This document shows, piece after piece, positions 2,661-24,359 of a stretch of DNA of 37,740 nucleotides. A program made the position numbers and the translations under genes. Within the stretch, counting starts at the first letter, position 1; every line of letters begins with the position of its first letter. The notes under the pieces were generated by a model. That model did no database searches, was not told the origin of the DNA, and worked only from the letters and a program-made list of their open reading frames with translations. The stretch is taken from IMG/VR virus record IMGVR_UViG_3300042988_000213, positions 1-37,740 of that record; one strand, written 5' to 3'. Origin of the DNA: a virus (taxonomy: Duplodnaviria > Caudoviricetes).

Positions 2661-5120
2661 ATGGCAACAACCGTCCCCAATAACCCATACGATACGCAGC
2701 CCCCAGCGACTGGCTCCACGGGCATCGTGGGCAGCGCTATGACGGGCGGCGCTACCACCGGCGCAAACGCAGCACAATCGACTGCCACCCCCAGCGCGGC
2801 CAACGCTGCGCCTCAGACATACGCCCCCCAGACTCGCGAAGTCAACCGGTCGACAGAGACGGCCGCCGGCCAAGTCGAGTCGCTGCTGGCCAAAGACAAC
2901 CCGCTCATGCAGCGGGCTCGCACGCTGGCCACCCAGGGCATGAACAAGCGGGGCCTGGTCAACAGCTCCATGTCGCAGGGCGCAGGTGTCGCGGCCATGA
3001 TTGACCGCATCACCCCGATCGCGCAGCAGGACGCCCAGACGTACAGCAACCAGGCGCTGGCCAACCAAAGCACTGTCAATCAGGCCGGGCAGTTCAACGC
3101 CTCCGAGATCAACAAGTTTGGCCTGCAGAAGTCTGACCAGGCGTTCACGGCTGCAGAGAGCGCTACCAACCGCCAGTTCCAGACGGGCGAACGCATCGGC
3201 AGCCAGACGTTTACGTCCGAGCAAAACCAAGCAACTCAGGCCTTCCAGGCCGCGCAGTCTCAGCTTGATCGCGCCCAGCAGACGGCGCTGGCCGACAAGA
3301 GCATTGAGGCCCAGCAGGCGCTTCAGCTCGCGCAGCAGACTTTCCAAGGTGCGCAGAGTGAACTCGACCGCGTCAATCAGAAGGCCTTGCAAGAGAGCCA
3401 GCAGCAGTTCACTGCCGGACAGTCTGCGCTTGACCGTGCGCAGCAAGTGTCCCTTGCCCAGGCCGCTCAGCAGTTCCAGGCCTCACAGGCTGAGCAGGAT
3501 CGAGCCACGCAGATCATGCTGGCCGACAAGCAGATCACTGCAACACAAGCCCTTGAGCAAGCGCGTCAGGCGTTCCAGTCGGAGCAGGCTGGACTGGATC
3601 GCACACAAGCTGCAACGCTGGCCAAAGAGGCACAGACGTTCCAAGCCACTCAGAACGAAATGAGTCGCGCCCAAGACCTGATGCTGGCGGACAAGAACAT
3701 TACAGCGCAGCAGGCTTTGGAGCAGTCGCGCCAGTCGTTCCAGTCAGCCGAGTCGGCCCTTGATCGCACTCAACAAACCAGCTTGGCAAATGCAGCTCAG
3801 ACCTTCCAAGCCTCGCAAGCCGAGAAGGACAGAGCAACTCAGATCATGCTTGCCGACAAGAACATCTCGGCAACGCAAGCGCTGGAGCAGGCAAGACAAT
3901 CGTTCCAAGCGAATCAGTCTGATCTGGATCGCACCCAGCAAGAGCGACTCCAGACCGCGCAGCAATCGTTTGCCTCAGCCCAGTCTGCGCTTGACCGCGC
4001 ACAGCAAGTTGCACTTGCAGACAAGTCTGTTGCTGCGCAGCAGGCATTGCAGGCGGCTCAGCAGACGTTCCAAAGTTCGCAAGCTGAACTTGATCGCGCC
4101 CAACAGACTGGCATCGTCAATCGCCAGATTGAGGCCCAAGAGAAGCAGCAGAGTGCGCAGCAGGCGTTCTCGAGCGCTCAGGCAGCTTTGGACCGTGCGC
4201 AGCAGGTGGCTTTGGCCGACAAGAGTGTGGCGGCACAACAAGCGCTGCAGGCTGCGCAGCAGACCTTCCAATCGGCTCAGGCAGCGCTTGATCGCACGCA
4301 ACAGACAAGCATTGCTGACAAGCAGATTGCTGCGCAAAAGGAACTGCAGACAGCGCAGCAAAACTTCGCGTCTTCGCAAAGCGAACTTGATCGTGCACAG
4401 CAAGTTGCGCTCAGTGACAAGTCCATTGCCGCACAGCAGGCTCTGCAGACTGCGCAGCAGAACTTCGCCAGCGCTCAAAGTGCCTTGGACCGAACCCAGC
4501 AGACTGCGATTGCTCAGGCGCAGATTACCGCCAGCCAGACGCAGCAAGCGGCCCAACAGCAGTTCGCAGCAACGCAGGCAACCCTTGATCGTGCGCAGCA
4601 AGAGTCAATGACTCGTCTTGCAGACGCGCTCAACCAGGCCAACGTCAGCAAGACTTTTGCCGCGAACTTGACGCTGCAGACGTCAAGCGCGGTCAACGCA
4701 ATTCAAGCCGACGGAAACATGACTCCCGAGGCGAAGAAGGCTGCCATCCAGAACGCCATCGACAACGCGAACAACACCATGCAGTGGGGCTCGACGTTCT
4801 ACAACACGGCGCTGCCGACTATCGCCGGGCCAAGCAACGGAGCCGGTGTCGTCAACCCCGGCGCTGGCGCTGGTGCTGGCGCTGCAACGCCACCAGTCAC
4901 GGCGCAAGTCCCAGCGCCTGCTCCAGTCGCAGCTCCTGTGCCCGCACCCGCGCCTGCACCAGCGCCAGTTCCTGTCCCCACTCCTGCTCCTGCGCCAGCC
5001 CCCGCACAGACGGGCATCGTTGCTCGCGCCCAGGTCCAAGACCAATGGGGCCGCTCGCCGGGCGACCCGGAGTACGGGATTGACCCATACGCCTACTACA
5101 ACGGCAACAACACAGCATGA
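2661..5120 (+). CDS. Gln/Ala-rich repeat protein; probable internal virion/DNA ejection (pilot-like) protein
   Basis: SD GAGG; N-terminal RGLVNSSM motif; 16 units of 22 or 33 aa (QxFxxxQxxLDRxQQ); Pro/Ala linker near the C-terminus. Confidence 0.7.
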   Translation: MATTVPNNPYDTQPPATGSTGIVGSAMTGGATTGANAAQSTATPSAANAAPQTYAPQTREVNRSTETAAGQVESLLAKDNPLMQRARTLATQGMNKRGLVNSSMSQGAGVAAMIDRITPIAQQDAQTYSNQALANQSTVNQAGQFNASEINKFGLQKSDQAFTAAESATNRQFQTGERIGSQTFTSEQNQATQAFQAAQSQLDRAQQTALADKSIEAQQALQLAQQTFQGAQSELDRVNQKALQESQQQFTAGQSALDRAQQVSLAQAAQQFQASQAEQDRATQIMLADKQITATQALEQARQAFQSEQAGLDRTQAATLAKEAQTFQATQNEMSRAQDLMLADKNITAQQALEQSRQSFQSAESALDRTQQTSLANAAQTFQASQAEKDRATQIMLADKNISATQALEQARQSFQANQSDLDRTQQERLQTAQQSFASAQSALDRAQQVALADKSVAAQQALQAAQQTFQSSQAELDRAQQTGIVNRQIEAQEKQQSAQQAFSSAQAALDRAQQVALADKSVAAQQALQAAQQTFQSAQAALDRTQQTSIADKQIAAQKELQTAQQNFASSQSELDRAQQVALSDKSIAAQQALQTAQQNFASAQSALDRTQQTAIAQAQITASQTQQAAQQQFAATQATLDRAQQESMTRLADALNQANVSKTFAANLTLQTSSAVNAIQADGNMTPEAKKAAIQNAIDNANNTMQWGSTFYNTALPTIAGPSNGAGVVNPGAGAGAGAATPPVTAQVPAPAPVAAPVPAPAPAPAPVPVPTPAPAPAPAQTGIVARAQVQDQWGRSPGDPEYGIDPYAYYNGNNTA
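3237..4620 (+). repeat. Degenerate coding tandem repeat, 66- and 99-nt units (11-aa base period)
   Basis: 16 recurrences of the F-x3-Q-x2-LDR unit (some degenerate) spaced 22 or 33 aa apart. Confidence 0.9.
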
Positions 5121-5566
5121 CCAAGATCGTCTGCCGCAAGGCCAAACTGGATGACATCCCCGCGATCGTAGACATCGCGGTGGAGTCGGTGTCGCGCGAC
5201 CCGCTGCCGGTGAAGATCAACCGCGAGGCGATGGCCGACACTGCACGCACCTGCCTGAACCCAGCCCACTTCATGTGGGTCGCGGAGCAGGACGGCAAGG
5301 TGGTGGCGTCGGTGGCCGCATGCGTGCAGGAATCGTTCTGGTTCAGCAAGCTGCAGTGCTCGGTGCTGCTGTACTACACCCGGGTGCCGGGTGCTGGAAT
5401 CCTGCTGCTGCGCGAGTTCGCGCGGTGGGTCAAGAGCCGCTCTGCCATCAAAGTGGCGGTGCTTGAGTTGGAACCCGGCGCAGATCCGCGCCTGGTGAAG
5501 TTTTTAAATCGGTTGGGCTTTGCTCGTGAATCGCTCAACGTCACGTATGTCAGGAGTGCAACATGA
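5117..5566 (+). CDS. GNAT-family acetyltransferase
   Basis: RKAKLDDIPAI…WVAEQDGKVV…GAGILLLREF…LNRLGF GNAT pattern; position among virion core genes recalls T7 gp13. Confidence 0.8.
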   Translation: MTKIVCRKAKLDDIPAIVDIAVESVSRDPLPVKINREAMADTARTCLNPAHFMWVAEQDGKVVASVAACVQESFWFSKLQCSVLLYYTRVPGAGILLLREFARWVKSRSAIKVAVLELEPGADPRLVKFLNRLGFARESLNVTYVRSAT

Positions 5567-6264
5567 GTAAGGTCGCGAAGTCGGTGGGCCGTGCGGTCAG
5601 CAAGGTCGTCAAGGGCGTTACCAACGTCGTCAAGAAGGTGGCCAGCTCCAAGCTGGGCAAGGTGCTGATCGCAGCCGCCGCCATCTACTTCGGAGGTGCG
5701 GCTCTGACGGGTGCGATGCAAGGGGCCTCTGCTGGGAGCGGATTTCTAGGCACCATATCCAGCGCGGTCGAGGGGGCGGCAACTGGCATTGGCAATGCTT
5801 GGAGCAGCCTAGGAACCGCCGCATCCCAAGCCGTTGGTGGCAACTTTGCCAATGCAGGGAATGCGCTCTCGACGGGCTTTCAAGGCGGCACCGCTTCAAT
5901 GGTCGATGGCGCAATGGTCTCGCAACCTTTGAGCATTGCGTCTGCGCCAATCACTCCGGCGGCCCCCACCGTGCCTAGCACTGCGCCGACATCCGGGCTG
6001 GATGTGAACTCGCTGATTGGAAAAGCTCCGCCTCAGATGTCGGTTCCAGGCTTGAACGTCCCTGCGGCTCCGCCATCAGGGATGATTGAAAAAATGATGG
6101 CCAGCCAGTACACCGCGCCCGCACTGATCTCTGGCGGCACCCAACTGATTGGCGGTGCCATGCAGGGGTACAGCGCTCAGCAGCAGCAGAAGAAGCAAGA
6201 GCAGATGGCGGCTGACGAGCGCAATCGCTACAACACCAACGTCGGTACACGCCTCTGGGGCTGA
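5563..6264 (+). CDS. Gly/Ala-rich internal virion (ejection) protein with membrane-active segments
   Basis: Basic amphipathic N-terminus, hydrophobic helix, Gly-rich helices, Q-rich tail; ATGA overlap. Confidence 0.65.
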   Translation: MSKVAKSVGRAVSKVVKGVTNVVKKVASSKLGKVLIAAAAIYFGGAALTGAMQGASAGSGFLGTISSAVEGAATGIGNAWSSLGTAASQAVGGNFANAGNALSTGFQGGTASMVDGAMVSQPLSIASAPITPAAPTVPSTAPTSGLDVNSLIGKAPPQMSVPGLNVPAAPPSGMIEKMMASQYTAPALISGGTQLIGGAMQGYSAQQQQKKQEQMAADERNRYNTNVGTRLWG

Positions 6265-6275
6265 AAGGAAAGATC

Positions 6276-6821
6276 ATGGCAGGACTCATTCAACAACAGA
6301 TGGCTGGCGCTCCAGCCACCGAGCAGGCTAAGCCAGCAGCCCCACAGCAGCCGATGCCCGAGCAGCAGATGCCTGCGGGCGAGATGGCCGAGGGCGAGGG
6401 TCCAGACCCTGACGCCGACCCGGGCTACCAGCAGGCCATGGCGTTCTCCATGGAGGCGCTGTACAGCAAGGAAGCTGCCAAGAACGTGGCCAAGTCCCTG
6501 AAGACTGGCGGCGACCCGGTGGAGTCTTTGGCCAACACCGCATACGAGATCGTCTCCATCGTGGACGAGCGCACGGAGGGCGCAATCCCCGACGAGTTGC
6601 TGGTGCTGTTCGCATCCAAGATCCTCGAGGAAGTCGCCGAGATCGGCGAGGCGGCTGGCGTTCAGTACAAACCATCGGACGTTGCGCTTGCACTCAAGCA
6701 GATGATCCTGCGCTTCCTGGGCGAGCAGGGCGTGGACACCACGCAACTGCAGCAGGCCATGGACCAGGTCGACCCTGAAGAGTTCAACAAGGTCGAGGAA
6801 GACGAGGAGGTGCCGGTATGA
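6276..6821 (+). CDS. Hypothetical acidic helical protein, virion module
   Basis: SD AAAGGA; strong codon bias; operon context. Confidence 0.75.
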   Translation: MAGLIQQQMAGAPATEQAKPAAPQQPMPEQQMPAGEMAEGEGPDPDADPGYQQAMAFSMEALYSKEAAKNVAKSLKTGGDPVESLANTAYEIVSIVDERTEGAIPDELLVLFASKILEEVAEIGEAAGVQYKPSDVALALKQMILRFLGEQGVDTTQLQQAMDQVDPEEFNKVEEDEEVPV

Positions 6822-7855
6822 GCGGATTGATCTGGGCCGGTATCGGCAAGGGCATCGCAGACGCGGGCTCCACGTTCGGCAGCTACATGGCCAAGGACAT
6901 TGAGGCCAACCGGCTGGAGGAGCGCGAGGCTCTGCGTGAGGAGCGTCTGCTCAAACGTCAGGAGGCGCTCGACCAGTTGAAGGCTGACCGCGAAGAGGCC
7001 AAGGCCGAGGCGTTGAAGCAACGGGTGATCAGCGAGTCCGAGGCCGTCGGCGTCAAGGCCGCCGCGATTGGCTCGGCTCGCGATGTCGCGCAGGGCGAGA
7101 AGGACGTCAAAGGTCTGATCAACCGTCAGTCGCAGATCGCCGGTGACTCGCCAGCGGCCAGCGAGGAGGAGATCAAGAAGCTGATCGCCGAGAACCCGCA
7201 GTACAAGGAGATCTACCGCGCGGCTGGCTACATTGACAAAGAGCCGACCGCCAACCAAAAGCGGCTGCAGCGTGCGGAGGACGAGGCCCAAGCGGCCAGC
7301 GACATCGGCGCTCATTCCTCGGTGATCGACGCCTATGCCAAGAAGCGCGACAGCGTGCTTGCGCAGATCCGCGAAGAGAACAAGGTGGAGGCTGAAAAGC
7401 GCAGGGATGACCGAGCTGCCGCAGACCGCGCAGCTTCCGACCGTCGCTTTGAAGCGCTGATGCCTATCCGTCAACAGAACGCTGATGCCAACACCACGCG
7501 CGCAGGCGCTGCCGTGACCAGTGCGAACAAGCCTTCGTCTAGCGCTTCCGACCCGAACAAGCCAGCCACCACGGCAGACCTGCAACGGCAGGTCAACGCG
7601 GCAAAAGATGAACTTGCCAAGGCGCTGAGCGTGGAGTCGCGGAATGACATCAACAGGGAACTGGCGTCGCTACGTAAGAAAGCCGCAGCCGGGAACGCTG
7701 CAGCCAAAGCGACACTTGAGCGAGTTCAGCCCCAGATCGACGAGGAAAGCGCTGCAAACCAGCGCCTGTTGAACTTCAAGCGGCCAAGCTCTTCTGCTTC
7801 AAATACAAGGGATAATTCGACAACCCGCCCTCCGCTCAGCAGCTTCGCTCGCTGA
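6818..7855 (+). CDS. Coiled-coil internal virion/ejection protein candidate
   Basis: N-terminal GLIWAGIGKGIADAG glycine-rich helix followed by a long charged coiled coil. Confidence 0.65.
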   Translation: MSGLIWAGIGKGIADAGSTFGSYMAKDIEANRLEEREALREERLLKRQEALDQLKADREEAKAEALKQRVISESEAVGVKAAAIGSARDVAQGEKDVKGLINRQSQIAGDSPAASEEEIKKLIAENPQYKEIYRAAGYIDKEPTANQKRLQRAEDEAQAASDIGAHSSVIDAYAKKRDSVLAQIREENKVEAEKRRDDRAAADRAASDRRFEALMPIRQQNADANTTRAGAAVTSANKPSSSASDPNKPATTADLQRQVNAAKDELAKALSVESRNDINRELASLRKKAAAGNAAAKATLERVQPQIDEESAANQRLLNFKRPSSSASNTRDNSTTRPPLSSFAR

Positions 7856-7890: not shown

Positions 7891-10800
7891 ATGAAGTTCG
7901 ACATCAATGCAGCCCGCAGCTCCGGGTATTCCGACGACGAGATCGCTGAATACCTGGCAACAGAAAACAAGTTTGATCTGAGCGGGGCGTTGAAGTCTGG
8001 CTACAGCGCATCGGAGGTTATCGGCTTCCTGTCCGGGGCCGACGCGGCACCGGTTGAGGCGGTGACCGACACCGGCGACGAGTCTGCTCGCCTTGCCGCC
8101 AGGTACAAGGCACCTGAAAAGCCCGGCCTGATTGAGCGCGCGGCCAGCGCAATCTCTTCGGTGCTGCCAAAGCCCGTGGACCCCATGGGCATTGCCTCCG
8201 GCAAACCGTTGGGTAGCACGCCGATTCGGGCCGAGGAGCCCGTAAAGCAGTCCAAAGCACCTACCCCCTACCGCGACCGCCGCGAGGCGCTGGACGACGC
8301 CGTCAACCTGCTGGAGGAGGGTGCTGATCAAGGTGCTGTGACCGAGGCCTTTGGAAAAGCTGGCATCAAGTTTGACGAGATCGTTGCTCACGGCCAGAAG
8401 CGCGGCAGCGAATACTTCAAGCAGCAGACTGTGCCTCAGGTTGACACCGAGGTTGCGCGCCTTGCTGCCCGCTACCCAGCTCCGCAGACGACCGATGAGA
8501 TCAAACCCTACGAGACGAGCGTTGGCGAGGACATCGCCAACTTCGCCAAGCGGGTGAGCGGCCGCTCAAGCCAGGCCTTTACCGGCTTGCTGGCCAACAC
8601 CGGCGTGATCAATGAGGATCAGGCAGCCGCAGCGCTGGCGCGCGACGAGCGACGCATTCAGGCAGCCCGTGCGCCTGAGTCCATTCAAGCCGGGTTTGAG
8701 GAAATTGGCCAAGCCAAGACCTACGGCGAGGCGGTGACTGCACTGGCCCGCAACCCGGGCGCTACGGCCACCATGCTGGCTGAGTCTGTGCTGATGACGG
8801 CCCCTGTGCTGGCAGCTTCTGCAGCTCGCCTGCCAGCCGTTGGTTTGGCTGCCGCCACCGGCGGCTTCTCCGCATCGCTCGAGTACGGCGGTGCCATGGC
8901 TGACGTGCTGTCTGAGCGCCGCATCGACATGCTCGACGCCAACAAGCTGGCGGCCGCTCTGAAAGACCCAGAGATCATCGCCGAGATCCGTGACAAGGGC
9001 ACGAAGCGCGGCCTGACCATCGGTATCATCGACGGCCTGACCGCAGGCATTGCCGGCAAGTTCCTTGAGCCCGTCCAGAAGACCATTGCAGCAGGCAAGC
9101 TGGCATCCGACGCCGCTCGCCGGGCAACCGTCGGCGCATGGGCCAAGGAGCTTGGCGTGCAGGTCGCAGGCGGCTCTGGCGGCGAGTTCGCCGCGCAGCA
9201 GTTGACCGGCGAAAACAAGCCCGCAGACGTGCTGCTTGAGGGTCTGGGTGAAGGCGTCTCGGCTCCGTTTGAGGCTCGGTCCAACCTGGCCGCATCTCGC
9301 AAGCTGGATCCGCTCCAGCAGATCGCTCAAGAGATTGAGGGCACAAACATTGACGTGGCCGGTGGCGTGGATGGACGTGTCCGCACGCTGCTCAACCCCA
9401 ATGCCTACGACTCAACACTGATCAGCCCCGAGCAAACAACGCGCCAGGCTGGCGACGTCGGGCCATCCGCGCCAGTGCAGACTCAGGACGCCTCTGCTCC
9501 TGCCAACCCGCAGCGCACACGCCTGATTGAGCTGGAGACCGTTGCACGCGGCGGCACCTCGTACACCTACCCAACGGCTGGCGGAGAGTCTGTCACTGTT
9601 GAGATCCCTGAGGGCCGCTCGCTTTCTGAGCAGGAGCGCACAGAGCTTGGCGACCTGCGCATGGGACGGTCTCAGCCTATCAGCTTCACGCCCGCCGACA
9701 GCCCAACCGCCCGGGCTGGACTGGCTCCGATCGTGGTGCCTGTGCCATCTGGCGCGCCCATTACGCAGGAGCAGAAAACCGAGCTGCCTCCTGTCAACCC
9801 AGAGATCGAACAGCAGTTCGGCCTCGACACACTTCGCATGGGGACAACCAATGTCGGCACAACTGGCGGAACTGGAGCCGCGCCTGCAGTGGGCGGTGTC
9901 GCAGGGAGCGATCAGCGTAGCGGAGGCGTGGACCTTCCAGGACTTGATGCTGCTGGCACCGGACAACTCAGTGGTGGAGATGCCGGACTGCCTGCAACCA
10001 ATGCTGGGGCGGATGTTCCTGCTCGAGGTGCAGGCGGACAACCGACTGCCAGCCTGAGCGCAGAAAATAACAATGCTGTAGGCCAGCCGGTCGAGCAGTG
10101 GGTCGGCCGCAAGGGCGGTGGCTACGAGACCGAGGCCGATGCGAAGCAGGCTCTGCCTGGCCGCCAGCGCATGTTCCCCGCCCTTGATTGGACGGTCGAG
10201 CAAATGCCAGGAGGCAAGTTCCGCCTGGCCGGGTATGAGCAACAGAGTTCGCAGCCTGCTCCCACTGTGGGCACCACGGAGGCAGGGGCCGGGGTTACCC
10301 AGCCGACGCAGGCTGCGCCTATCACATCCGAAACCGCCAGCAGCGCTCAGGCCGCGCCAGCACAGGGTCCGGCTATCACATCCGAAACCGCCGCACCCAT
10401 CACTGCCCCCAGCGGCAAGCCTTTCAGCACCGAGAAAACCGCCGCCGTATATGCGCAGCAAAACGGCATCACCGGCTACAGCACCGTCAAGATGGACGGT
10501 GGCTGGGTCATCAAACCAACGGAGACGACCCTTGGCACTCAAGCCCCTCAAGCCATCCAAGCAACGCAAGAAGGACAGCAAGCACCAGCCGTCGGTGGAG
10601 CTGCAACCACTGCCAGTTCAATTCGACAGCCCCAAGCGGGAGTACTGCGCAACGCACCGACTGGCGGAAGCATTGAGTCGCAGCAAATCCGAGACACCTA
10701 CCAAGCAGAGCTAGACGCAGTCAAGGAGCCGATCAAACTCAACGCGCCAACGCCAGAAGCAGAAGCGCAAGTTGAGGGCTTTGGCAACGCACTTGGCAAG

Positions 10801-13800
10801 GTGTTTGGCATTGACCGCCCGGTCGTGGCGTTCAGCGACTCCACAGCCCCCAACGGTTTTGCGTTCAAAGGTCAAGCGTTTGTCAATACAGCCGACGTCG
10901 AGATCGGGGTTCAGCGCACCTCGCTGCATGAATTCACGCACCTGATCGAAGCGATTGCAGAAGCCGACACGCAGTCCGGCAAGACAGGCACTGCCGCACA
11001 GAACTTCATCAAGCAGATCTACAGCGTCTTTGATGACGTGTCGGATGACTTCAAGCGCGTCTATGTCGAGAAATACCTGCACGCTGCTGATCTGAAAGAT
11101 CTCAAGGGCGACGAGCGAGAAGCCGCTATTCAGGGTTACCTGAAGAGCCAGAAGCTGCGCTCGGAGATCACCGCAGACTTCATGGGCAACCGCGCCAACG
11201 ACCGCGCCTTCCTTGAGGACCTGGCAGAAAAGGACCCCAACGGCTTTGAGTCGTTTGTTCAGAAGTGGATCTCGTTGATCGACAACCTGATGCAGAAGCT
11301 GCGCGGCGCTCCCGCTCAGGAGCGCGGCCCACAGGCTGCCGTTGACCGCGCCGTCAAAGACTTGGCCAAGGCTAAGATGGTTGCCCGCGATGCGTTGATT
11401 GCTTACCGCAAAGGCAGCATGAAGGAGCGCCGACAGGCTTCTTCTGCGGGCGTCACGCAGGGTCGGGTGACCCAAGCCACAGCCATGGCAGGCAACTCTC
11501 AGCCGATGGCATCCAACCGCGCCGCTCCTGAGACGCCTGAGTTCAAGAAGTTCTTCGGCAACTCAAAGGTTGTGGATGCCGCTGGCAATCCCATGGTGGT
11601 CTATCACGGAACCAACGCTGATGTCACCGCTTTTGACGACACAGCCTCTGGTGCCAACTCGGGTAATCGAGGCTTCTTGGGTCGCGGTTTCTATTTCAGC
11701 AGCAGCCCGCAATCGGCGTCAATGTATGCAGGCGTGACTCGACCGCAAGGCACAGACACATGGCGTCGCACCGATGGCGGAAACGTCATGCCGGTGTATC
11801 TGTCACTGCAGAACCCGCTCGAGATCAGCGAGAAGGGCCTGTCGAAAAAGGCGGCAGACGCACTCAACTCCGTGCCCGTCACGGGCCTCAAGTTCTTTGA
11901 GGGTGATCGCGGCGTCGACGGCGATCTGGCCCTTGCTGTCGAGCAGAACCCGGAGTTGTCCGACGCGATTCGCAGCGCACTCACCGCACTCGGCTACGAC
12001 GGTGTGATTGTCGATGGTGGCCGAGAGATCGTTGCCTTCCGTCCCGAGCAGATCAAGTCTGCCACCGGCAACGACGGTCAGTTCGATGCGTCGAACCCAG
12101 ACATCCGTCGCAGCAACCGCGCTGCTACTGAGGCCAACAAGACAGTCGACGTCAACGGCGTTGAGCTGCCTCTCAATGATGATGGCACCGTCACGTTGTA
12201 TCACCATACTGATAAAGCGAGCGCCGATCAGATCCGCGCAAGCGGCCAGCTGCGCTCCAAAGGTGAGCCAGATGTCTACCTCACCACGCGCCAGCAGGCG
12301 GACACCGGCTACGGTGACACTGCCGTAGCGGTCCAGGTCGATCCGGCCAAGCTGACGCTGGATGACGAGTTCCCCGATGGGCGCACCGACTTCCGCATGA
12401 GCGTCGGCAAGCCAGGTGGTTCTGTTTCAGTTGTCGCTGAGCAAGGCGACAACGTCATGCCGCCAGAGCAAATCAATGCCGACGGCATCATGTTCTCTCT
12501 GCGCAAGGTCGAGGAGATCAACGACGCGCCAGAGATCACGATGAAGGATTTGGTCGGACAGACGGTGTTCCCGATCCTTGCCGACCTGACCGCCGCTGGC
12601 TACGTCTACATGGGCAAGGAGCTGCGTGGCGGCCCGTACTACACGCTGTTGCCATCGAACTCCAAGGCTGGCCTGATCTGGGCCAACGACGGCAAGGGCG
12701 TGGCCAGCATCAAGAACAAGAAGGCTGCACGCGGTGTGATCGGCTTGATCGTGGCGATGAAGCAAGACTCGCACGCGACCAACAACACCGTTGCCAATAT
12801 CATCTTCCGCGCTGTCGAGGACGAGATCCAGAAGGGCTCTGTCGCCAAGGCAGACATTCCCAAGCTGGACGACATCGTGCGTGGCCTTGCCACCCGCACC
12901 GCCACCAAGACCCGCAAGGTCGACGGCAAGAAGGTCAAGGAAACGAAGCAGGTGTTCCCGAAGTTCGCTGACTTCCCCGGCTTCAGCGACCGCGCTGCGT
13001 CCGAGAAGTTCCTGCGCGCCATGCCATTTGAGGCGCGCGGCCTGTTCTTTGAGGAGATGACCAAGCCCACCGTCGAAGACCTGGGCCTCGGCGTGATCCG
13101 AAAGGTGATCAACGACACGGTCGAGCCAGACCTTCGTGGCCTAAACATGGGCGACGTGGTCATGGCCATCCGCTTCGATCCCAACGCTGACACGATCGAG
13201 CTGGGCGAGAAGACTGGCACACCGGAGCACGACTCCTACCGCTACGGCGTCAAGGGCGAAGTGATCGGCAAGTTCAAGCGTCCGATCTCGTTCGAGAACG
13301 TGTTTGTCGAGCTGATGAAGGAGCGCCGCGCCGCTGGCAAGGATCGCCCTGCAGGCAACTACCGCTCGCTCACGCTGCGCAAGCCCGAGCAACTGATCAC
13401 TGAAGAGATCGCAGGCGGCGTCGGTCAGGAGAAGTACAAGACGTTCAAGACCCCGGCCGAGGCCAAAGCTGCCGTTGCTGTTGCAGCCATGGACTGGAAG
13501 GTCATCGACCGCCCCGCAGCCGCAGGCGTCAAGGAGTTCTTGCGCACGGCCCGCATCTACGGCGAAGGCAAGGTGCCATCGTTCGGTGAAGCCAAGATGC
13601 TGATCAAGGATGGGCGTCTGCGCATCTTCCGCTTGGCCAACACCGAGAGCTGGTTCTCGATCGAGAGCCGTGGCAACAAGCGCGTGATGACTCACGCCAT
13701 GGTTGCGCAGCCGGGCGTTGAGCGCGACATGCTGTTTGGCGACATGGTGTTCCAAGCGCGCGCCAACGGTGCCACGCACATCGAAGAGGGCGGCAAGGTC

Positions 13801-16800
13801 GAGCCGATCACCGAGCAGAAGGCAATGCGCCGCGTTGCTCCGATCGTCAGCGAGTTGTCTGAGATGCCGGATGCCGACATCAAGAACTTGGGCATCGACC
13901 CCAAGGAAGTCGACCGCCTGAACGGGTTGATTGGTGAGGGCGAAGAGGAATTCTCAGCAGAAGCGCTGCCCGTCTACAGCAACCGCGTGACTGATACACC
14001 CGCCTTCAAGCGCTGGTTCGGCGACAGCAAAGTGGTGGACACCGAGGGCAAGCCGCTGATCATGTATCACGGCACCGCACAAGACATTTCGACATTCCGC
14101 GCAAAGCAAGCCAAAGCAATCTTTGTCACAAGCGACCCCGATTTTGCTGAAGGTTTTGCTGGTATGAGCGAGGCGTGGATGCTCAAGAACTATGAGCAGG
14201 TACTGACTCAGGAGCAAATTGAGGCGGCATTTGACGAGGCAGAATCCGCGATTCGTCAAGAACTGAGGTCTGCGGTCGTCGCCGATGTCGAGGTTGCCAA
14301 GCTGCGGGGTGGCAAGCCAACTGGCATTGCGCAAGAGAAGCTGTCCGCCGCGCTTTCTGAGCAGATGCCATCCGGGCCAAACATCATTCCCGTCTACGTC
14401 AGCGCTCAAAACCCGTTTGATTTTGAGAATCCAGATCACATTGAGATGCTGAAAGAGTACGAGCGGGACAATCGCTACACGCCGCGCAGCATCAGCTTCT
14501 CGATCGGTTCGATTGAGACCGGCTACTGGGAAGAGATCGAAAGGCCGACAATTCAAGCAGCCCTTAAAGACTTGGGTTTTGATGGCTTCTACGTGGAAGA
14601 GGATGGCAAGAAAAACCTTGCCGTCTACAAGCCTGAGCAACTGAAATCCGCCATCGGCAACAACGGCGAGTTCGATCCGGCCAACCCTGACATCCGCATG
14701 AGCAACCGGGCTACGTTCCGCGAGGACATTCCCCGCGAAGAGTGGCTTGCTGAAAAGATCGAAGACGCAGAACTGGGCGGCAAGAACGAGTTTGGTGTGC
14801 CTCGCCGGATGGGTCCTGCGACCGGGTACTTCAGCCGGCCATTGAATTTGCCGACCTACCTTCTGGGCACGCTGCGCGGCGAGCGCGGTGAGCAAGAGAA
14901 CGTGCGAGAGTCTTCGCTCGAGTACATCCGCAGCAACTGGGATGAGGTCAAGCAAGAGCCAGCTTATGTTGAGGTCGATCCGTTTGGGCGCGCATGGGTA
15001 AGCGAAGGAAACCACCGAATCATGGTTGCCCGCGAGCTTGGAGAGAAGACATTCCCGACAGAGGTGAAGTACTTCAGCGGCGGACAACGAAAGGCTGGGC
15101 CATGGGCTCCTGATGAGTTGCTGCAACTGGATGAGCGGGTTGACATCCGCGCAAGTAACCGCGTGCTCGAGGACCGCAGCGGCTTGTCGCGGTTGCCTTA
15201 CCAAGGGTATGTCAAAGCTGAAGTCCCTCGCGTGCAGGCGGCCCGCAAGATGGCTGGCATCTTGGCCAAGCTGGATGCTGGCCAGATCACGCAGAATGAG
15301 TTCGAGCTGCAAGTGCGCGAACTCTCCGAGCGCATGGCCTTGGTGTCGGCCACCAAGGACGCCAACAAGATCGTCAGCGAGCGCGCGCGTGGTGCTGACA
15401 TCGTCCGCGAGAAGCTGATTGCTGCCCGTCGTCGCGGGGAGATTGAGTCGGACACTGCAGAGTTCGCCCTGTGGGCGCTGCAGCAGAACCCGGCTATGGC
15501 CGAAGGTCTGGGCATCTCGGTGCGTGAGCAACCGGAGAACCAGCGCGGTGCGGCTGGCGACTACAACCCTGCAGCCGCAATCATGCGGGTGTTCAAGGGC
15601 GCATCCAAAGCCACCACTGCGGTCCACGAGATCCTGCACCACACCGAGCGCATGATGCCCGAGGCAGTGCAGACCGGCATCCGCAAGGAGTGGGCGAAGG
15701 CCTACGCCAAGGCACTGAACAGCGCCAAGCCAGCGCAGCGCGAGGCGCTGGAGAAGATGCTCGCGGCGATGGCTGGTGACCAGAAGGCTCAGGCCGATGT
15801 GCGCGATGCGTTCAACGACGGCACGCTCGATGCAGACGTCCACTACCAACTGGTCAACCCCAGTGAGTTCTGGGCCGTCAACGCGACCGACATCCTGCAG
15901 CGCCGCTACGAGGCGGGCTCTTGGATTGGCAAGGCCAAGCAGTGGCTGCGTGAGATGGTGCAGAAGGCCAAGGGTCTGGTGGGCATGCGCTCAAACGCTC
16001 CCGTGCTGCGTGGCCTGGAGGCTGTGCTCAACAGTGATGGCGAGCGTCAGTCGAAGAAGATGCTGTCTGAGGGCAAGGTGTTTGAGGACATCTCTGCGCC
16101 CGATACCAATGCGTTCAAACGCTGGTTCGGCGACAGCAAGGTGGTGGATGCTGAGGGTAGGCCGCTGGTGGTGTATCACGGCACTGGCTCGGACATTACT
16201 GCGTTTGATGCCAAGAACCCTCGCATGCGAGATGGCAAGCTTGGCAAAGGCATCTATCTGACTCCGTCCACTCAAAAGGCGAACTTCTTTGCGAACTTGC
16301 GCGCAAAAGATGGTAGCCCTAACGTGATGCCGCTGTACGCCGCAATCACCAATCCATTTGAGATTTTTGGAGAGAGCAATAGGCCCGTCTCTGGAGTTGA
16401 CCAAGCTAGCCTGATTGCGAAAGGATACGATGGCGTTGTCCTTTACGGCGACGACGGTGCCATGCAAGAGATCGTCGCCTTCCGTCCCGAGCAGATCAAG
16501 TCCGCCATCGGCAACAACGGTGAGTTCGATCCAGAGAATCCTGACATCCGCAAGAGCAACCGCGTGCAGCCCACCGACTGGCGCGACGAGGCTGGCCGCG
16601 TCCGGTTCATGCCCGGTGCAGTGGCCTACCGCTACGCAGCCGACATCGCCAACAAGCTGCTCGACAAGACCCCGCTGATCGGCTCGCTCAAGCCCATCGA
16701 CAAGGACCTCGCGCTGGCCATGCGCCGCATGAAGACCGAGATCGAGAACGCACAGACCCGCACCGCTGGCGTGGCCTCCAAGTTGGGTGAGCTGCCAGAG

Positions 16801-18969
16801 GACGAGCGCAAGATGATCAGCGACGTGATCGAGGGCGAACTCAAGCGTGGCGTCAAGCCCGCCAAGCGAGTGCTCGAGGTGGCTGCATCCATGCAGTCGA
16901 TCATGTCCGAGCAGAGCGCTGAGCTGGTCCGTCTGGGCATGCTGACCTCCGACGCAGCCAGCCGCTGGGACGGCAAGTACCTGCCACGCTTCTACGAGCA
17001 GACGCTCAAGAACGAAGCCAGCCAGTGGGCCAAGGCAGCCAAGGCATTGCTTGGCCGCAAGAAGACCATGCAAGGCATCAAGGGGTCCAACCTCAAAGGC
17101 CGTGGCATCTTTGAGACGATCCCCGTGGACGAGCTGGAAGCTTGGCTGGCCGAGGGCTGGGAAGAGCGCGATCCGAACTTCGACCCAGCCACCGACACCG
17201 AGATCACCGTCTGGCGCGACTACACCCGTGCTGAGCGGGAGAACATGGGCGAGATCCGCGACGCCATGTTCCGCTTCGTCATGGGCTACATGAAGAGCCA
17301 GCGCGACGTGGCCCTTGGCCGCCTGTACGAAAACCTCGCCGATACGGTGGCCAGCAAGTCCGAGAAGGAAGGCTACGTGCAGGTGCCCAAGACCAACATT
17401 GAGAACACCAAAGCCCCTCGCTACGGCAAGCTGTCTGGCAAGTGGGTGCCACAAGAGGTGCTTGACCACCTGAGCGCTTTCGACGGCAGCATGGAGAATG
17501 AACTGCTCAAGGTCTATCGCAAGGGCCTGTCCATGTGGAAGGAAGGCAAGACCGTGCTGAACCCGGTTGCGCACGCCAACAACGTGCTGTCCAACCTGAC
17601 CATGGCCCACTTCGCTGGCGTGTCCTACTGGGACGCCAACAAGTACCTTGGTGCCGCACGCGACATCGTCAAGGGCGCACCGATGCTGACCGAGGCCCGC
17701 GAGGCTGGCCTGTTCGGCGGCACCGTGTCGCAGGCTGAACTGGTGAGCATGCTGCCTGACCAGCTCAAGGTGCTGGCCGCAAAGACAGAGTCCAATGTGG
17801 GCAAGATTGTCGACACGGCGTGGAACGCCATGTCGTTCTTCCTGCGCAAGCCTCTTGGTGTGGCGTACGAAGCCGAAGACCTGTACTTCCGCTACCTGAT
17901 CTATCGCGACGCACGCGCCAAGGGCATGGACCCAGAGGACGCGGTGACCTACGCTCAGCAGTACATCTTCACCTACGACGACCTGCCCAAGGGCGCACGC
18001 ACGATCCGCGACGCACCGATCGGCATCCCGTTCTTCTCGTGGACCTACAAGGCGATCCCGATGATTGCCCGCACGGCTCTCGAGTACCCCTGGCGCATGG
18101 CTGCCCCTGCGGCTGCCATGTACGCGGCCAACGCGGCCATGTATGCCATCGCTGCTGGCGCTGATGCCGGTGACGACGAGCCATGGTGGGAGGCGCTCAA
18201 GCGCTACGTCATGGATGCTGAGTTCCGCGAGCAGGCCAAGCAGCTCGAGCAGCAGGAGCGCAAGAACCTGCCTGAGTGGCAGAAGGGCTTCAGTTCGATC
18301 GGCACGCCCAAGGCGATCCGTCTGGGCAACGATGACCTGACCAACCTGCCTCTGTTCTTGGACGTCAGCCGGATCTTCCCAGGCGGCGATCTGGGCGACT
18401 TCCACAACAACCTGGGGGGTGTGCCCCTCCCGGCCTGGTTGACGCCAAATAACCCTGTTCTGACGAGCCTGACGGCCTTCCTGCAGAACAAGGACTCGTT
18501 CACCGGCAAGGAGATCGTCAGCGCGAAGCTCGACACCGGCGGCGAGAAGTCAGCCAAGTGGGGCGAGTATGCGTGGCGTCAGTTCGCACCGGCCGTCGCT
18601 CCGTTCAACTACCACTTCGATCGCACGATGAATTCAGTGGCCAACGCCACCGGCTCGACGATTGATCTGGGCGTGAAGGAATACACGGGCGTGGACAAGA
18701 TGGGCCAGCCTGTGCAGCCCAAGTACGCGGCCATGCAGACGTTCGGCCTCAAGGTCCGCCCGACAGACCTCGAGGTCTCCGAGCAGATCGAAGAGTCTCA
18801 GCGCAAGCAGTTGATCCGTGAACTCGACAAGCAGATCCGCCAGATCAAGCGCCTTGAAAACAAGGGCTACTACAGCGAGGAGAAGGCCGAGGCGATCACC
18901 GATCCGATCCGCGAGAAGCGCCAGCGCCTGAAGGAAGGCCTGACGATCGACGGCGAGGAGCGGGAATAA
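7891..18969 (+). CDS. Giant polyvalent (probably virion-ejected) protein, 3692 aa: 2 HExxH zincin domains, 4 ART-like domains, ParB/Srx-like domain, uncharacterised domains, helical C-terminal domain
   Basis: Uninterrupted 11-kb ORF; SLHEFTH and AVHEILHH; three FKxxFGxSKVVD…YHGT…G(Y/F)DG…PEQ(I/L)KSA modules plus LYHHT…VYLTT; VSEGNHR. Confidence 0.9.
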   Translation: MKFDINAARSSGYSDDEIAEYLATENKFDLSGALKSGYSASEVIGFLSGADAAPVEAVTDTGDESARLAARYKAPEKPGLIERAASAISSVLPKPVDPMGIASGKPLGSTPIRAEEPVKQSKAPTPYRDRREALDDAVNLLEEGADQGAVTEAFGKAGIKFDEIVAHGQKRGSEYFKQQTVPQVDTEVARLAARYPAPQTTDEIKPYETSVGEDIANFAKRVSGRSSQAFTGLLANTGVINEDQAAAALARDERRIQAARAPESIQAGFEEIGQAKTYGEAVTALARNPGATATMLAESVLMTAPVLAASAARLPAVGLAAATGGFSASLEYGGAMADVLSERRIDMLDANKLAAALKDPEIIAEIRDKGTKRGLTIGIIDGLTAGIAGKFLEPVQKTIAAGKLASDAARRATVGAWAKELGVQVAGGSGGEFAAQQLTGENKPADVLLEGLGEGVSAPFEARSNLAASRKLDPLQQIAQEIEGTNIDVAGGVDGRVRTLLNPNAYDSTLISPEQTTRQAGDVGPSAPVQTQDASAPANPQRTRLIELETVARGGTSYTYPTAGGESVTVEIPEGRSLSEQERTELGDLRMGRSQPISFTPADSPTARAGLAPIVVPVPSGAPITQEQKTELPPVNPEIEQQFGLDTLRMGTTNVGTTGGTGAAPAVGGVAGSDQRSGGVDLPGLDAAGTGQLSGGDAGLPATNAGADVPARGAGGQPTASLSAENNNAVGQPVEQWVGRKGGGYETEADAKQALPGRQRMFPALDWTVEQMPGGKFRLAGYEQQSSQPAPTVGTTEAGAGVTQPTQAAPITSETASSAQAAPAQGPAITSETAAPITAPSGKPFSTEKTAAVYAQQNGITGYSTVKMDGGWVIKPTETTLGTQAPQAIQATQEGQQAPAVGGAATTASSIRQPQAGVLRNAPTGGSIESQQIRDTYQAELDAVKEPIKLNAPTPEAEAQVEGFGNALGKVFGIDRPVVAFSDSTAPNGFAFKGQAFVNTADVEIGVQRTSLHEFTHLIEAIAEADTQSGKTGTAAQNFIKQIYSVFDDVSDDFKRVYVEKYLHAADLKDLKGDEREAAIQGYLKSQKLRSEITADFMGNRANDRAFLEDLAEKDPNGFESFVQKWISLIDNLMQKLRGAPAQERGPQAAVDRAVKDLAKAKMVARDALIAYRKGSMKERRQASSAGVTQGRVTQATAMAGNSQPMASNRAAPETPEFKKFFGNSKVVDAAGNPMVVYHGTNADVTAFDDTASGANSGNRGFLGRGFYFSSSPQSASMYAGVTRPQGTDTWRRTDGGNVMPVYLSLQNPLEISEKGLSKKAADALNSVPVTGLKFFEGDRGVDGDLALAVEQNPELSDAIRSALTALGYDGVIVDGGREIVAFRPEQIKSATGNDGQFDASNPDIRRSNRAATEANKTVDVNGVELPLNDDGTVTLYHHTDKASADQIRASGQLRSKGEPDVYLTTRQQADTGYGDTAVAVQVDPAKLTLDDEFPDGRTDFRMSVGKPGGSVSVVAEQGDNVMPPEQINADGIMFSLRKVEEINDAPEITMKDLVGQTVFPILADLTAAGYVYMGKELRGGPYYTLLPSNSKAGLIWANDGKGVASIKNKKAARGVIGLIVAMKQDSHATNNTVANIIFRAVEDEIQKGSVAKADIPKLDDIVRGLATRTATKTRKVDGKKVKETKQVFPKFADFPGFSDRAASEKFLRAMPFEARGLFFEEMTKPTVEDLGLGVIRKVINDTVEPDLRGLNMGDVVMAIRFDPNADTIELGEKTGTPEHDSYRYGVKGEVIGKFKRPISFENVFVELMKERRAAGKDRPAGNYRSLTLRKPEQLITEEIAGGVGQEKYKTFKTPAEAKAAVAVAAMDWKVIDRPAAAGVKEFLRTARIYGEGKVPSFGEAKMLIKDGRLRIFRLANTESWFSIESRGNKRVMTHAMVAQPGVERDMLFGDMVFQARANGATHIEEGGKVEPITEQKAMRRVAPIVSELSEMPDADIKNLGIDPKEVDRLNGLIGEGEEEFSAEALPVYSNRVTDTPAFKRWFGDSKVVDTEGKPLIMYHGTAQDISTFRAKQAKAIFVTSDPDFAEGFAGMSEAWMLKNYEQVLTQEQIEAAFDEAESAIRQELRSAVVADVEVAKLRGGKPTGIAQEKLSAALSEQMPSGPNIIPVYVSAQNPFDFENPDHIEMLKEYERDNRYTPRSISFSIGSIETGYWEEIERPTIQAALKDLGFDGFYVEEDGKKNLAVYKPEQLKSAIGNNGEFDPANPDIRMSNRATFREDIPREEWLAEKIEDAELGGKNEFGVPRRMGPATGYFSRPLNLPTYLLGTLRGERGEQENVRESSLEYIRSNWDEVKQEPAYVEVDPFGRAWVSEGNHRIMVARELGEKTFPTEVKYFSGGQRKAGPWAPDELLQLDERVDIRASNRVLEDRSGLSRLPYQGYVKAEVPRVQAARKMAGILAKLDAGQITQNEFELQVRELSERMALVSATKDANKIVSERARGADIVREKLIAARRRGEIESDTAEFALWALQQNPAMAEGLGISVREQPENQRGAAGDYNPAAAIMRVFKGASKATTAVHEILHHTERMMPEAVQTGIRKEWAKAYAKALNSAKPAQREALEKMLAAMAGDQKAQADVRDAFNDGTLDADVHYQLVNPSEFWAVNATDILQRRYEAGSWIGKAKQWLREMVQKAKGLVGMRSNAPVLRGLEAVLNSDGERQSKKMLSEGKVFEDISAPDTNAFKRWFGDSKVVDAEGRPLVVYHGTGSDITAFDAKNPRMRDGKLGKGIYLTPSTQKANFFANLRAKDGSPNVMPLYAAITNPFEIFGESNRPVSGVDQASLIAKGYDGVVLYGDDGAMQEIVAFRPEQIKSAIGNNGEFDPENPDIRKSNRVQPTDWRDEAGRVRFMPGAVAYRYAADIANKLLDKTPLIGSLKPIDKDLALAMRRMKTEIENAQTRTAGVASKLGELPEDERKMISDVIEGELKRGVKPAKRVLEVAASMQSIMSEQSAELVRLGMLTSDAASRWDGKYLPRFYEQTLKNEASQWAKAAKALLGRKKTMQGIKGSNLKGRGIFETIPVDELEAWLAEGWEERDPNFDPATDTEITVWRDYTRAERENMGEIRDAMFRFVMGYMKSQRDVALGRLYENLADTVASKSEKEGYVQVPKTNIENTKAPRYGKLSGKWVPQEVLDHLSAFDGSMENELLKVYRKGLSMWKEGKTVLNPVAHANNVLSNLTMAHFAGVSYWDANKYLGAARDIVKGAPMLTEAREAGLFGGTVSQAELVSMLPDQLKVLAAKTESNVGKIVDTAWNAMSFFLRKPLGVAYEAEDLYFRYLIYRDARAKGMDPEDAVTYAQQYIFTYDDLPKGARTIRDAPIGIPFFSWTYKAIPMIARTALEYPWRMAAPAAAMYAANAAMYAIAAGADAGDDEPWWEALKRYVMDAEFREQAKQLEQQERKNLPEWQKGFSSIGTPKAIRLGNDDLTNLPLFLDVSRIFPGGDLGDFHNNLGGVPLPAWLTPNNPVLTSLTAFLQNKDSFTGKEIVSAKLDTGGEKSAKWGEYAWRQFAPAVAPFNYHFDRTMNSVANATGSTIDLGVKEYTGVDKMGQPVQPKYAAMQTFGLKVRPTDLEVSEQIEESQRKQLIRELDKQIRQIKRLENKGYYSEEKAEAITDPIREKRQRLKEGLTIDGEERE
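9851..10057 (+). CDS. Putative overprinted 68-aa gene nested in the +1 frame of the giant ORF
   Basis: GGGGA SD-like sequence upstream of ATG 9851; GC3-rich codons in this frame while the host frame becomes A/T3-rich, low-complexity Gly/Ala/Thr. Confidence 0.6.
   Translation: MSAQLAELEPRLQWAVSQGAISVAEAWTFQDLMLLAPDNSVVEMPDCLQPMLGRMFLLEVQADNRLPA
10532..10714 (+). CDS. Putative second overprinted 60-aa basic gene nested in the +1 frame of the giant ORF
   Basis: GGAG at 10521-10524, TTG start 7 nt later; codon bias shifts to the +1 frame. Confidence 0.4.
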   Translation: MALKPLKPSKQRKKDSKHQPSVELQPLPVQFDSPKREYCATHRLAEALSRSKSETPTKQS

Positions 18970-22757: not shown

Positions 22758-24359
22758 TCAGTCCCAATGGTAAGAGACAACGGTCGGGTACTTTGAAGCA
22801 CGACTGACAACGATTGCTTTTGGCGTCCTCAAGATTGTTTGGTCGTACTCAATCCATTCGATTGCCTCTTCAGCATTGCTGGGGATTGCGTCGATCTTTG
22901 ATCTTTGTTGCCACCACTTCTCTGCCTTCTTTCTGGCAAACCCTTCGTGTCCGATGCAGCACCAGTCCGCCGCCCTCTTGAGTAGGCCGTCGTAGTACTC
23001 CACCCGCAGGCTTGGCGGACTGCCGAGCTTCTGGTGTAGCTTGTATCGCACCTCGGTCACTGGAATGGTCTCGAACATCGTCTCCTGCTGGCTGCTCAGG
23101 ACGGCCGCAGCGGAGGCCTGGATTCCGTGCTTGATCCGCTCGGGCTCGGGGAAGAGGAAGCCGCAGTCCAAGCACTCGGTGGCGCTGGCGGCGTTCTGGC
23201 TGCCGCAGTGGGGGCACAGCTTGTGCGGAGCCTCACCCTTGCGGCCACCGGTGGGCAGGCGGCCCTTGACGGCGTCCACAGGCCCCATGATGGCGGTCGT
23301 GTCGGTGAAGTCTGCCCACAGGCAGTTCTCCTTGCCGGGTGCGATGCGCATGCCACGGCCAGCGATCTGCACGTAGAGCACCGGGCTCTTGGTGGCCCGC
23401 AGCAGGGCGATGAAGTCGGTCTCGGGCGCGTCGAACCCGGTGGTCAGCACGCCGACGTTGACCAGGCAGCGCACGCGCCCGGCCTTGAAGTCGCCGATCA
23501 GCTTGGCCCGCTCGACCTTGGGCGTCTCGCCACAGACCATGGCGGCCGTCACGCCCCGGCGCTGCAGGGCCTCGGTGACGTGGTTGGCGTGGCTCACCGT
23601 CACGGCGAACACCAGCCAGCGCTTCCTCTCGGCAGCGAGCTGCACGATCTCGTCGCAGGTTGCCTCGACCAGCTCCTCGGTGTCGGTGACCTTGGCCAAC
23701 TCGCTGACCACGTAGTCGTCGCCGCTGGTCCGCACGCCGTTGGCGTCGATCCTGGTGACCGTGGTGGCCGGGACCAGGGGTGACAGGAAGCCCAGGTCCA
23801 GCAGCTCGCGCATGGTCACGCGGGTGGCAATGTTGGTGAACAGCGGGTCATCGCCTGCGGTCAGCCAGACGCCGTTGCCGCGGAACGGGGTGCCGGTCCA
23901 GCCGATGCAGCGGGTGTGCGGGTTGTACTTGGCCAGGTCGTTGAGGAACGACCGCCACATGCCTGCGTCCTTGGGGTTGATCAGGTGGCACTCGTCGGCC
24001 AGCACGATGTCGATGCGGCCAAGCAGGTGAGCGTCGCGGTAGATCGAGCCGATCGTGGCGTAGGTGATCTGGCAGCCCAAGTCCTTGCGGCCAGCCCCGG
24101 CGCTGTAGATGCCGACGTTGGCCTCGGGCCAGACGGTGACGATCTTCTCGACGTTCTGCTCGAGCAGTTCCTTCTGGTGGACCAAGACCAAGATGCGGGT
24201 GCCGGGGAACTCCATGTCGGCACGCTGCGCCAGCAGGGCGATCATCAGGGACTTGCCAGCCCCCACGCAGGCCTCGACGATGGGGTTGCCGCCGTCGTGC
24301 CTGCTGAACCACGCCCACAGTTCTTCCAGCGTGCGGGACTGATACGGGCGGGGGATCAT
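22758..24359 (-). CDS. SF2 DEAD/DEAH-like helicase (RadD/YejH-like) with Zn ribbon
   Basis: VGAGKS, DECH, TGTP, LTTGFD, QIAGRGMR, CPHC…CLDC. Confidence 0.92.
   Translation of the reverse strand: MIPRPYQSRTLEELWAWFSRHDGGNPIVEACVGAGKSLMIALLAQRADMEFPGTRILVLVHQKELLEQNVEKIVTVWPEANVGIYSAGAGRKDLGCQITYATIGSIYRDAHLLGRIDIVLADECHLINPKDAGMWRSFLNDLAKYNPHTRCIGWTGTPFRGNGVWLTAGDDPLFTNIATRVTMRELLDLGFLSPLVPATTVTRIDANGVRTSGDDYVVSELAKVTDTEELVEATCDEIVQLAAERKRWLVFAVTVSHANHVTEALQRRGVTAAMVCGETPKVERAKLIGDFKAGRVRCLVNVGVLTTGFDAPETDFIALLRATKSPVLYVQIAGRGMRIAPGKENCLWADFTDTTAIMGPVDAVKGRLPTGGRKGEAPHKLCPHCGSQNAASATECLDCGFLFPEPERIKHGIQASAAAVLSSQQETMFETIPVTEVRYKLHQKLGSPPSLRVEYYDGLLKRAADWCCIGHEGFARKKAEKWWQQRSKIDAIPSNAEEAIEWIEYDQTILRTPKAIVVSRASKYPTVVSYHWD

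Follow-up and report, generated by a model that had tools for sequence, protein, structure and literature searches.

A family of small genes nested out of frame within the giant polyvalent genes of tailed phages

Embedded, out-of-frame genes are already known in phages. In the lambda Rz/Rz1 pair, a small spanin gene is fully embedded, out of frame, in its same-strand partner. A different kind of pairing is found with the T6SS Eag chaperones, the T3SS translocator chaperones and orphan immunity genes, where a small acidic protein is produced next to a large one that is exported and has hydrophobic N-terminal segments.

Two descriptions of large phage proteins are also relevant here. Polyvalent proteins are placed among late virion genes in the main text of Iyer et al. 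(2017; PMC5512222), and the passages on gene order in PMC4819975 describe podovirus internal virion protein (IVP) operons that start with the acetyltransferase IVP-A and have the largest protein, IVP-D, last. The same passages call gp0002 (BA3_0002) of Thalassomonas phage BA3 an IVP-D homolog.

We analysed a 37,740-nt stretch of DNA from a Caudoviricetes virus (IMG/VR record IMGVR_UViG_3300042988_000213), referred to here as the window, in which a 68-aa reading frame lies inside a giant gene. As in Rz/Rz1, the small gene is wholly embedded, out of frame and on the same strand. Unlike the Rz1 o-spanin, however, none of the 73 family members has a lipobox or a transmembrane segment (a 19-residue hydrophobic stretch of 1.6 or more), and, unlike Rz, the host is a virion-type protein of 1400-3900 aa rather than an i-spanin, with binding between the partners only proposed here. 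The host resembles the polyvalent proteins of PMC5512222 in being a giant multidomain protein with ART-PolyVal domains near late genes; the main text of that paper contains no mention of 'overlap', 'alternative reading frame' or 'small protein', and uses 'nested' only of a hairpin. The secretion chaperones and orphan immunity genes provide a working analogy only, since we found no similarity to them in sequence or fold and their genes are adjacent to those of their partners, not nested. Our search of the open-access literature found neither a description of this family nor one of genes nested in polyvalent or ejection proteins. What is new is this protein family and its arrangement inside polyvalent giants.

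The giant gene and its nested frame

The features on which the analysis rests are as follows.

5117 to 7855, + strand: GNAT acetyltransferase gene (IVP-A-like) and three genes at the positions of the smaller ejection proteins (Pfam and PHROG; assignment via synteny)
7891 to 18969, + strand: giant host gene for a 3692-aa polyvalent protein (Pfam: four ART-PolyVal stretches, E 7e-77)
9676 to 9747, + strand: host-frame motif (N/S)FTPxDSPTxxAGLxxI(V/E)VP, 22-58 codons upstream of the nested ATG
9840 to 9844, + strand: Shine-Dalgarno (SD)-like GGGGA, 6 nt 5' of the ATG at 9851
9851 to 10057, + strand: nested 68-aa gene in the +1 frame of 7891-18969, with an ATG start and a TGA ending at 10057
10090 to 10242, + strand: small folded host domain (WxGRxGDGY...), just 3' of the nested stop

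The giant is a polyvalent protein, with several disparate domains encoded near virion genes, and two HExxH motifs are visible in its translation. Its neighbours include an endolysin gene and the GNAT gene (5117-5566), after which come three further genes and then the giant itself as the last and largest gene of the block. By position, and thus by synteny, the giant would be an IVP-D-like ejection protein. It is probably injected, since the IVP-like gene order, the description of BA3 gp0002 as an IVP-D homolog in the passages cited and the late placement of polyvalent proteins in the main text of PMC5512222 all point to an injected virion protein. Elsewhere in the window, positions 24356-24970 (- strand) hold a Mom-family DNA modification gene between a helicase gene and a Cas4-like exonuclease gene.

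The nested ORF spans host codons 654-722 of the 3692-codon gene. An earlier note, made from the letters of the window, had proposed a hidden gene at this place, and the ATG, the stop, the 68-aa peptide and the +1 frame that it gave match exactly, as does the GGGGA sequence, which lies 6 nt before the ATG. The contrast in codon usage that it described between the two frames is borne out by our measurements: GC3 is 0.83 in the nested frame, while in the host frame it falls to 0.38 (interval starting at 9844), the lowest value of the entire giant gene, and the codon log-odds here are 0.34 for the nested frame vs -0.22 for the host frame. Part of the high GC3 of the nested frame follows from the G-starting Gly/Ala/Val/Asp/Glu codons of the host frame; in AT-rich relatives the nested GC3 is 0.60-0.78 where that of the host gene is 0.31-0.33.

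The +1 frame has no stop from 9527 onwards (176 aa), and upon synonymous recoding of the host gene it stayed open in 64% of trials, so the signal from this single genome is, by itself, only suggestive. The ATG, the open frame and the stop were retained together in 3% of those trials, and in 3.2% as the mean of the same test over 44 sequences. No sigma-70 promoter-like site was found between positions 4500 and 11000 of the window. Over the nested gene the host protein has pLDDT values below 50 (residues 58-136 of the flank model) and no secondary structure, so that what had been noted as a featureless linker is indeed predicted to be disordered.

Conservation and selection among relatives

Protein searches matched 8 of 8 and later 33 of 76 candidates. 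When a profile was used, 56 clusters at 50% identity were retrieved: 55 with lengths of 65-88 aa, and one that is a long repeat protein. The first scans yielded 31 virus and metagenome loci, several of them near-duplicates; every one has the small gene in +1 relative to a long open frame, starting with ATG and encoding 66-68 aa. Thirteen further, more distant loci (13 of 13) show the same arrangement with mostly unrelated flanking host sequence, which brings the loci found via the peptide to 44, every one nested in +1 and free of stops. Stops in homologues or a lack of conservation in +1, which the earlier note had named, together with a failure to detect translation, as grounds for giving up the gene, were thus not seen. 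Of 26 non-redundant sequences, 24 have GGAG, GGAGG, AGGAG or GGGGA 5-7 nt 5' of the ATG. In four loci (L009, L028, L029 and L030) an in-frame stop immediately precedes the nested ATG, which counts against the small protein being a frameshift product.

Conservation of the nested protein exceeds that of the host peptide in 252 of 253 pairs. Across 14 pairs with no shared member, dN/dS is 0.22 in the nested frame vs 2.00 in the host frame, and in the adjacent host domain used as a flank control (9 of the 14 pairs alignable) the relation reverses, with 0.13 in the host frame vs 1.67 in the nested-type frame. The small frame is thus under purifying selection, as the earlier note had supposed, and the host frame over the same bases is left to drift. 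Taken together, these sequence comparisons put the nested gene well beyond chance, and we regard 9851-10057 as almost certainly a real gene.

A search in the opposite direction, with the host-frame domain as query, returned 31 loci of which 27 carry the nested gene, including 12 of 16 new contigs; two of the four loci that lack it are cut by contig ends. Since the query was built from carriers, this is only a partial control against ascertainment bias. No copy was detectable in six related giants (L036, L037, L064, L065, L066 and L068, with L065 and L068 cut by contig ends), and the gene is therefore not universally needed. The last viral scan, which used the most distant members, gave no new match, and a screen of 7993 scored candidates turned up no longer or fused form, though this is weak evidence.

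Two cultured phages carry related genes. A tblastn search of cultured phages with the window peptide and P0077 found no real match, and profile comparison identified BA3_0004 (ABV74289.1) of Thalassomonas phage BA3 as a distant homolog (HHalign 96%, E 4e-9, 58 columns, 22% identity). GenBank annotates BA3_0004 as a 'hypothetical protein' CDS within the 2631-aa BA3_0002; the position is host codon 471, the frame is +1, and AGAGG precedes the ATG. It differs from the window gene in that the GenBank product is 110 aa long, with a first 46 residues that resemble a linker shadow, and the conserved part begins at an internal Met. The top Foldseek match to the nested protein, A8HNW3 (probability 1.00, TMq 0.75, rmsd 1.3, E 0.08), appears to be BA3_0004 itself, since the two agree in length, aligned columns and identity. 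An unannotated nested +1 copy, 71% identical to that of BA3, is present in Vibrio phage FGH.

Annotation of the family is otherwise usually absent, in line with the expectation that gene callers would miss the gene: although the family comprises at least 55 clusters at the 50% identity level, its location inside another gene makes it largely invisible. The apparent floppy linker of a polyvalent ejection protein is here the by-product of a second, selected gene, and domain maps and dN/dS values of such giants are therefore misleading.

We considered how the host sequence around the nested gene varies among carriers. Where the upstream frame of a virus locus is complete, the start of the nested gene falls at about host codon 470-780. 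The N-terminal modules upstream of it are linked by homology into a single network and have moderately hydrophobic segments, and the cargo domains downstream vary freely: ART-PolyVal occurs in 5 of 18 scanned carriers, and the giants of relatives carry LPD38, LPD1, MuF_C and InPase. Several divergent types of N-terminal module can be told apart when 7891-9850 of the window is set beside L001, L014 and relatives, and the upstream motif, the nested gene and the small domain after it remain linked as one cassette. The giant of L082 (8440-20019) has an anti-CBASS Acb1 domain together with ART-PolyVal.

The motif at 9676-9747 is conserved at the protein level with synonymous variation and has low pLDDT in its own chain. 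It is found only in giants with the nested gene (in none of the six without) and is absent from the carriers L018, L060-63, L070-79, L081, BA3 and FGH. We consider it a candidate ligand of the nested protein in the clade of the window. The domain at 10090-10242 is modelled with a pLDDT of about 91, has a host-frame dN/dS of 0.13 and bears a weak likeness to half of a SPOR domain (Z 4.8, rmsd 2.3, 48 aligned). In L061 the nested gene sits downstream of this domain instead, and no flanking host motif is common to all carriers.

The small protein and its copies in bacterial genomes

An AlphaFold model of the nested protein (73 sequences) has a pLDDT of 90.9 and three helices at residues 10-17, 23-35 and 46-59. 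The family is acidic, with 72 of 73 members net negative, and its termini are conserved (MSA... and ...NxLP). The 73 members have no meaningful match in PHROGs, Pfam, NCBIfam or PADLOC, apart from weak AbiEi matches in 3, and a PDB sequence search gave no family match. Comparison with solved folds yielded a best Foldseek match of E 2.9 and a best VIA Z of 3.8 (rmsd 3.9, 57 aligned), none clearly above background. We regard the family as new, and its members are likely small folded proteins according to the model.

Two structural leads were dropped. The 'RLG' sequence is the c-di-GMP motif of PilB-N/MshE, and a weak likeness to these domains (Z 3.7 and 3.0) was abandoned on finding that the motif is not in the alignment. 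SnoaL/DUF4440 fragments (Atlas features 0.90-0.92, at most 161 shared) clash with the all-helical model, and a second Atlas query for the nested protein gave no usable match.

Searches of bacterial genomes matched 6 of 401, 3 of 401, 2 of 401, 3 of 61 and 1 of 61 genomes, counts that overlap and include one false match (L089, within a 740-codon frame). They comprise eight distinct copies. Four are nested in +1 of long read-through frames (G369, G325, G790 and G1168, the matches in G325 and G790 being weak), and four are free-standing with no read-through frame (G001, G398, G1169 and G172). Three free-standing members can be placed as follows.

L090 (G398), 9724-9930: preceded by an AGGAG SD, between a metallo-beta-lactamase-fold gene and an ornithine cyclodeaminase gene
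L096 (G1169), 1501-1707: the pair of L090
L083, 527-727: on a 1.5-kb contig of Caldimonas tepidiphila, 80 nt after a phage lysozyme gene

The G398 and G1169 copies are syntenic and differ at 20 nucleotides and at one amino acid, with the -1 frame broken. The small protein is therefore selected even without a giant gene. The G398 copy lies among housekeeping-type genes, and no phage gene was recognised in the 14 neighbours scanned. Protein records identical to these two copies are labelled hypothetical (Curvibacter) or, in UniRef, 'Addiction module protein'. The addiction-module antitoxin family PF09720 was rejected as a relative: Pfam gave no family match to it, and HHalign against 30 PF09720 members gave a probability of 0.4% and a score of 11.3 vs 10.0 +/- 2.4 for shuffled sequences. 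Among the scanned neighbours of the free-standing copies (selected larger ORFs only) there is no RelE/ParE-type toxin gene.

The free-standing copies also bear on the age of the two frames. The earlier note called the small gene overprinted, and the nesting that this implies is correct. The further implication, that the small frame is the younger, would fit the six related giants without a copy, but selection acts on the small frame and free-standing copies exist; the data lean the opposite way or cannot tell. Together the selection and the free-standing copies suggest that the giant frame may have come to read through an independent small gene.

Possible roles, and other nested frames in the giants

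We tentatively propose, while holding it for the moment more doubtful than probable, that the nested product is a chaperone-inhibitor of the giant ejection protein, which it would restrain until packaging. The nested gene would likely be translated from the same late mRNA as the giant gene, to yield a small acidic protein of three predicted helices. This protein would bind the giant, probably injected, protein and could keep it soluble and inactive until it is packaged, and the free-standing bacterial copies may then be read as retained 'orphan' inhibitors. Two points lead us to favour this role: where the gene sits follows the N-terminal module in front of it and not any cargo, and the free-standing copies fit retention as orphan inhibitors. 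The co-occurrence with the motif at 9676-9747 and the nested position after the N-terminal module are circumstantial. On the other side stand the lack of a universal flank, the six giants without a copy and the persistence of free copies, which without a giant gene fit a cellular target at least as well. If the small protein does restrain the giant, it has a bearing on the way in which multi-enzyme ejection proteins stay inactive until they are packaged. The cultured phages BA3 and FGH and the free-standing copies make the function testable, and the nested start could be silenced without altering the giant protein.

An unlikely extension of this proposal is that giant ejection genes carry an out-of-frame inhibitor where the membrane-crossing module meets the cargo, and that bacteria captured it as an orphan that jams the ejection proteins of related phages on their entry, and so serves as anti-phage immunity. 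Should the bacterial copies prove protective in this way, they would represent a new route to such immunity, one that starts from a nested phage gene.

It is possible, and nearly as likely as the chaperone-inhibitor role, that the small protein acts on a target in the host cell, as a regulator, a defence component or otherwise, and that the giant gene reads through an older small gene. The four free-standing bacterial copies are consistent with such a role, above all the G398/G1169 pair with its single amino acid change, as is the absence of any host flank universal among carriers. It accounts less readily for the similar place that the gene keeps in late-operon giants of marine and freshwater phages, whose hosts, where cultured or known at genome level, belong to different classes, and the family has no similarity to known anti-defence or defence families.

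The small protein may, with rather lower probability, be an internal virion or assembly protein, such as a scaffold or adaptor, that helps to load the ejection proteins or is ejected with them, and that binds another virion protein and not the N-terminal part of the giant. Its position in the IVP-like block after the GNAT gene would suit this role, and the conserved termini suggest binding surfaces. However, the gene is absent from six related giants, and the selected free-standing chromosomal copies have no virion to build.

The earlier note suggested a small co-expressed partner, either a chaperone, which is plausible, or a protease inhibitor or antitoxin for the toxic domains. A role of this last kind, directed at a specific cargo domain such as ART or zincin peptidase, we find improbable. 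The four ART-PolyVal stretches and the two HExxH motifs offer potential targets in the window, other nested ORFs follow Zeta-toxin domains in four of five such hosts, and the UniRef label on two free-standing copies names an addiction module. Against this, an antitoxin for ART is unlikely because ART occurs in only 5 of 18 carriers; where present it is more than 500 codons from the nested gene, cargo varies freely, and the PF09720 comparison falls within its shuffled controls. That there is no separate gene, and that the ORF merely reflects the composition of a Gly/Ala linker or is the end of a product made by +1 frameshifting of the giant gene, is very hard to sustain. Long +1 frames are common in this GC-rich giant, and this one mostly stayed open in the recoding trials, but the dN/dS asymmetry with its reversing flank control, the conserved SD, ATG and stop, the in-frame stops before the ATG in four loci, the free-standing copies and the confident predicted fold all argue for a gene.

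The giants contain further candidate nested ORFs, and all those that pass our filter are in +1, none in +2. The more fully described are listed here.

10532 to 10714 of the window, + strand: second +1 nested ORF candidate of 60 aa, with a TTG start, GGAG at 10521-10524 and a basic N-terminus
L004 14960-15142, L014 15443-15625, L015 14903-15085 and L057 12286-12468: ORFs following Zeta-toxin domains
L001 13988-14242, L010 14357-14548 and 15140-15337: +1 ORFs in later linkers, also present in L023, L024, L026, L051 and L054

The start of the second ORF, (M/L/V)ALKPLKPSK, recurs with TTG, GTG or ATG and mostly a GGAG-type SD in 26 of 34 loci, with lengths of 24-83 aa. Past this N-terminus the sequence varies: L001, L002, L003 and L029 share a conserved 76-79-aa version, and the tail in the window differs. 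The ORFs that follow Zeta-toxin domains are 60 aa long, in +1, with an AGAGG SD, and begin about 35-45 codons after the domain in four of the five giants that have one. Zeta-toxin and the following ORF are candidates for a toxin-antitoxin pair that the giant gene has absorbed. In later linkers, recurring +1 nested families begin MGKxTYKGLVP..., MxNDSAxQPNL... and MPVRPMTDEEAER....

Two of the giants in which the family was not detected have small frames of their own. L064 carries a different 49-aa +1 ORF with an ATG and an SD at the same position (2586-2735), whose end faintly resembles the C-terminal half of the family and might represent a replacement or a relic. The cultured Limnohabitans phage DC33 (L036) has two unannotated +1 ORF candidates with an SD at 11268-11483 and 12117-12305, within a gene of 3125 codons.
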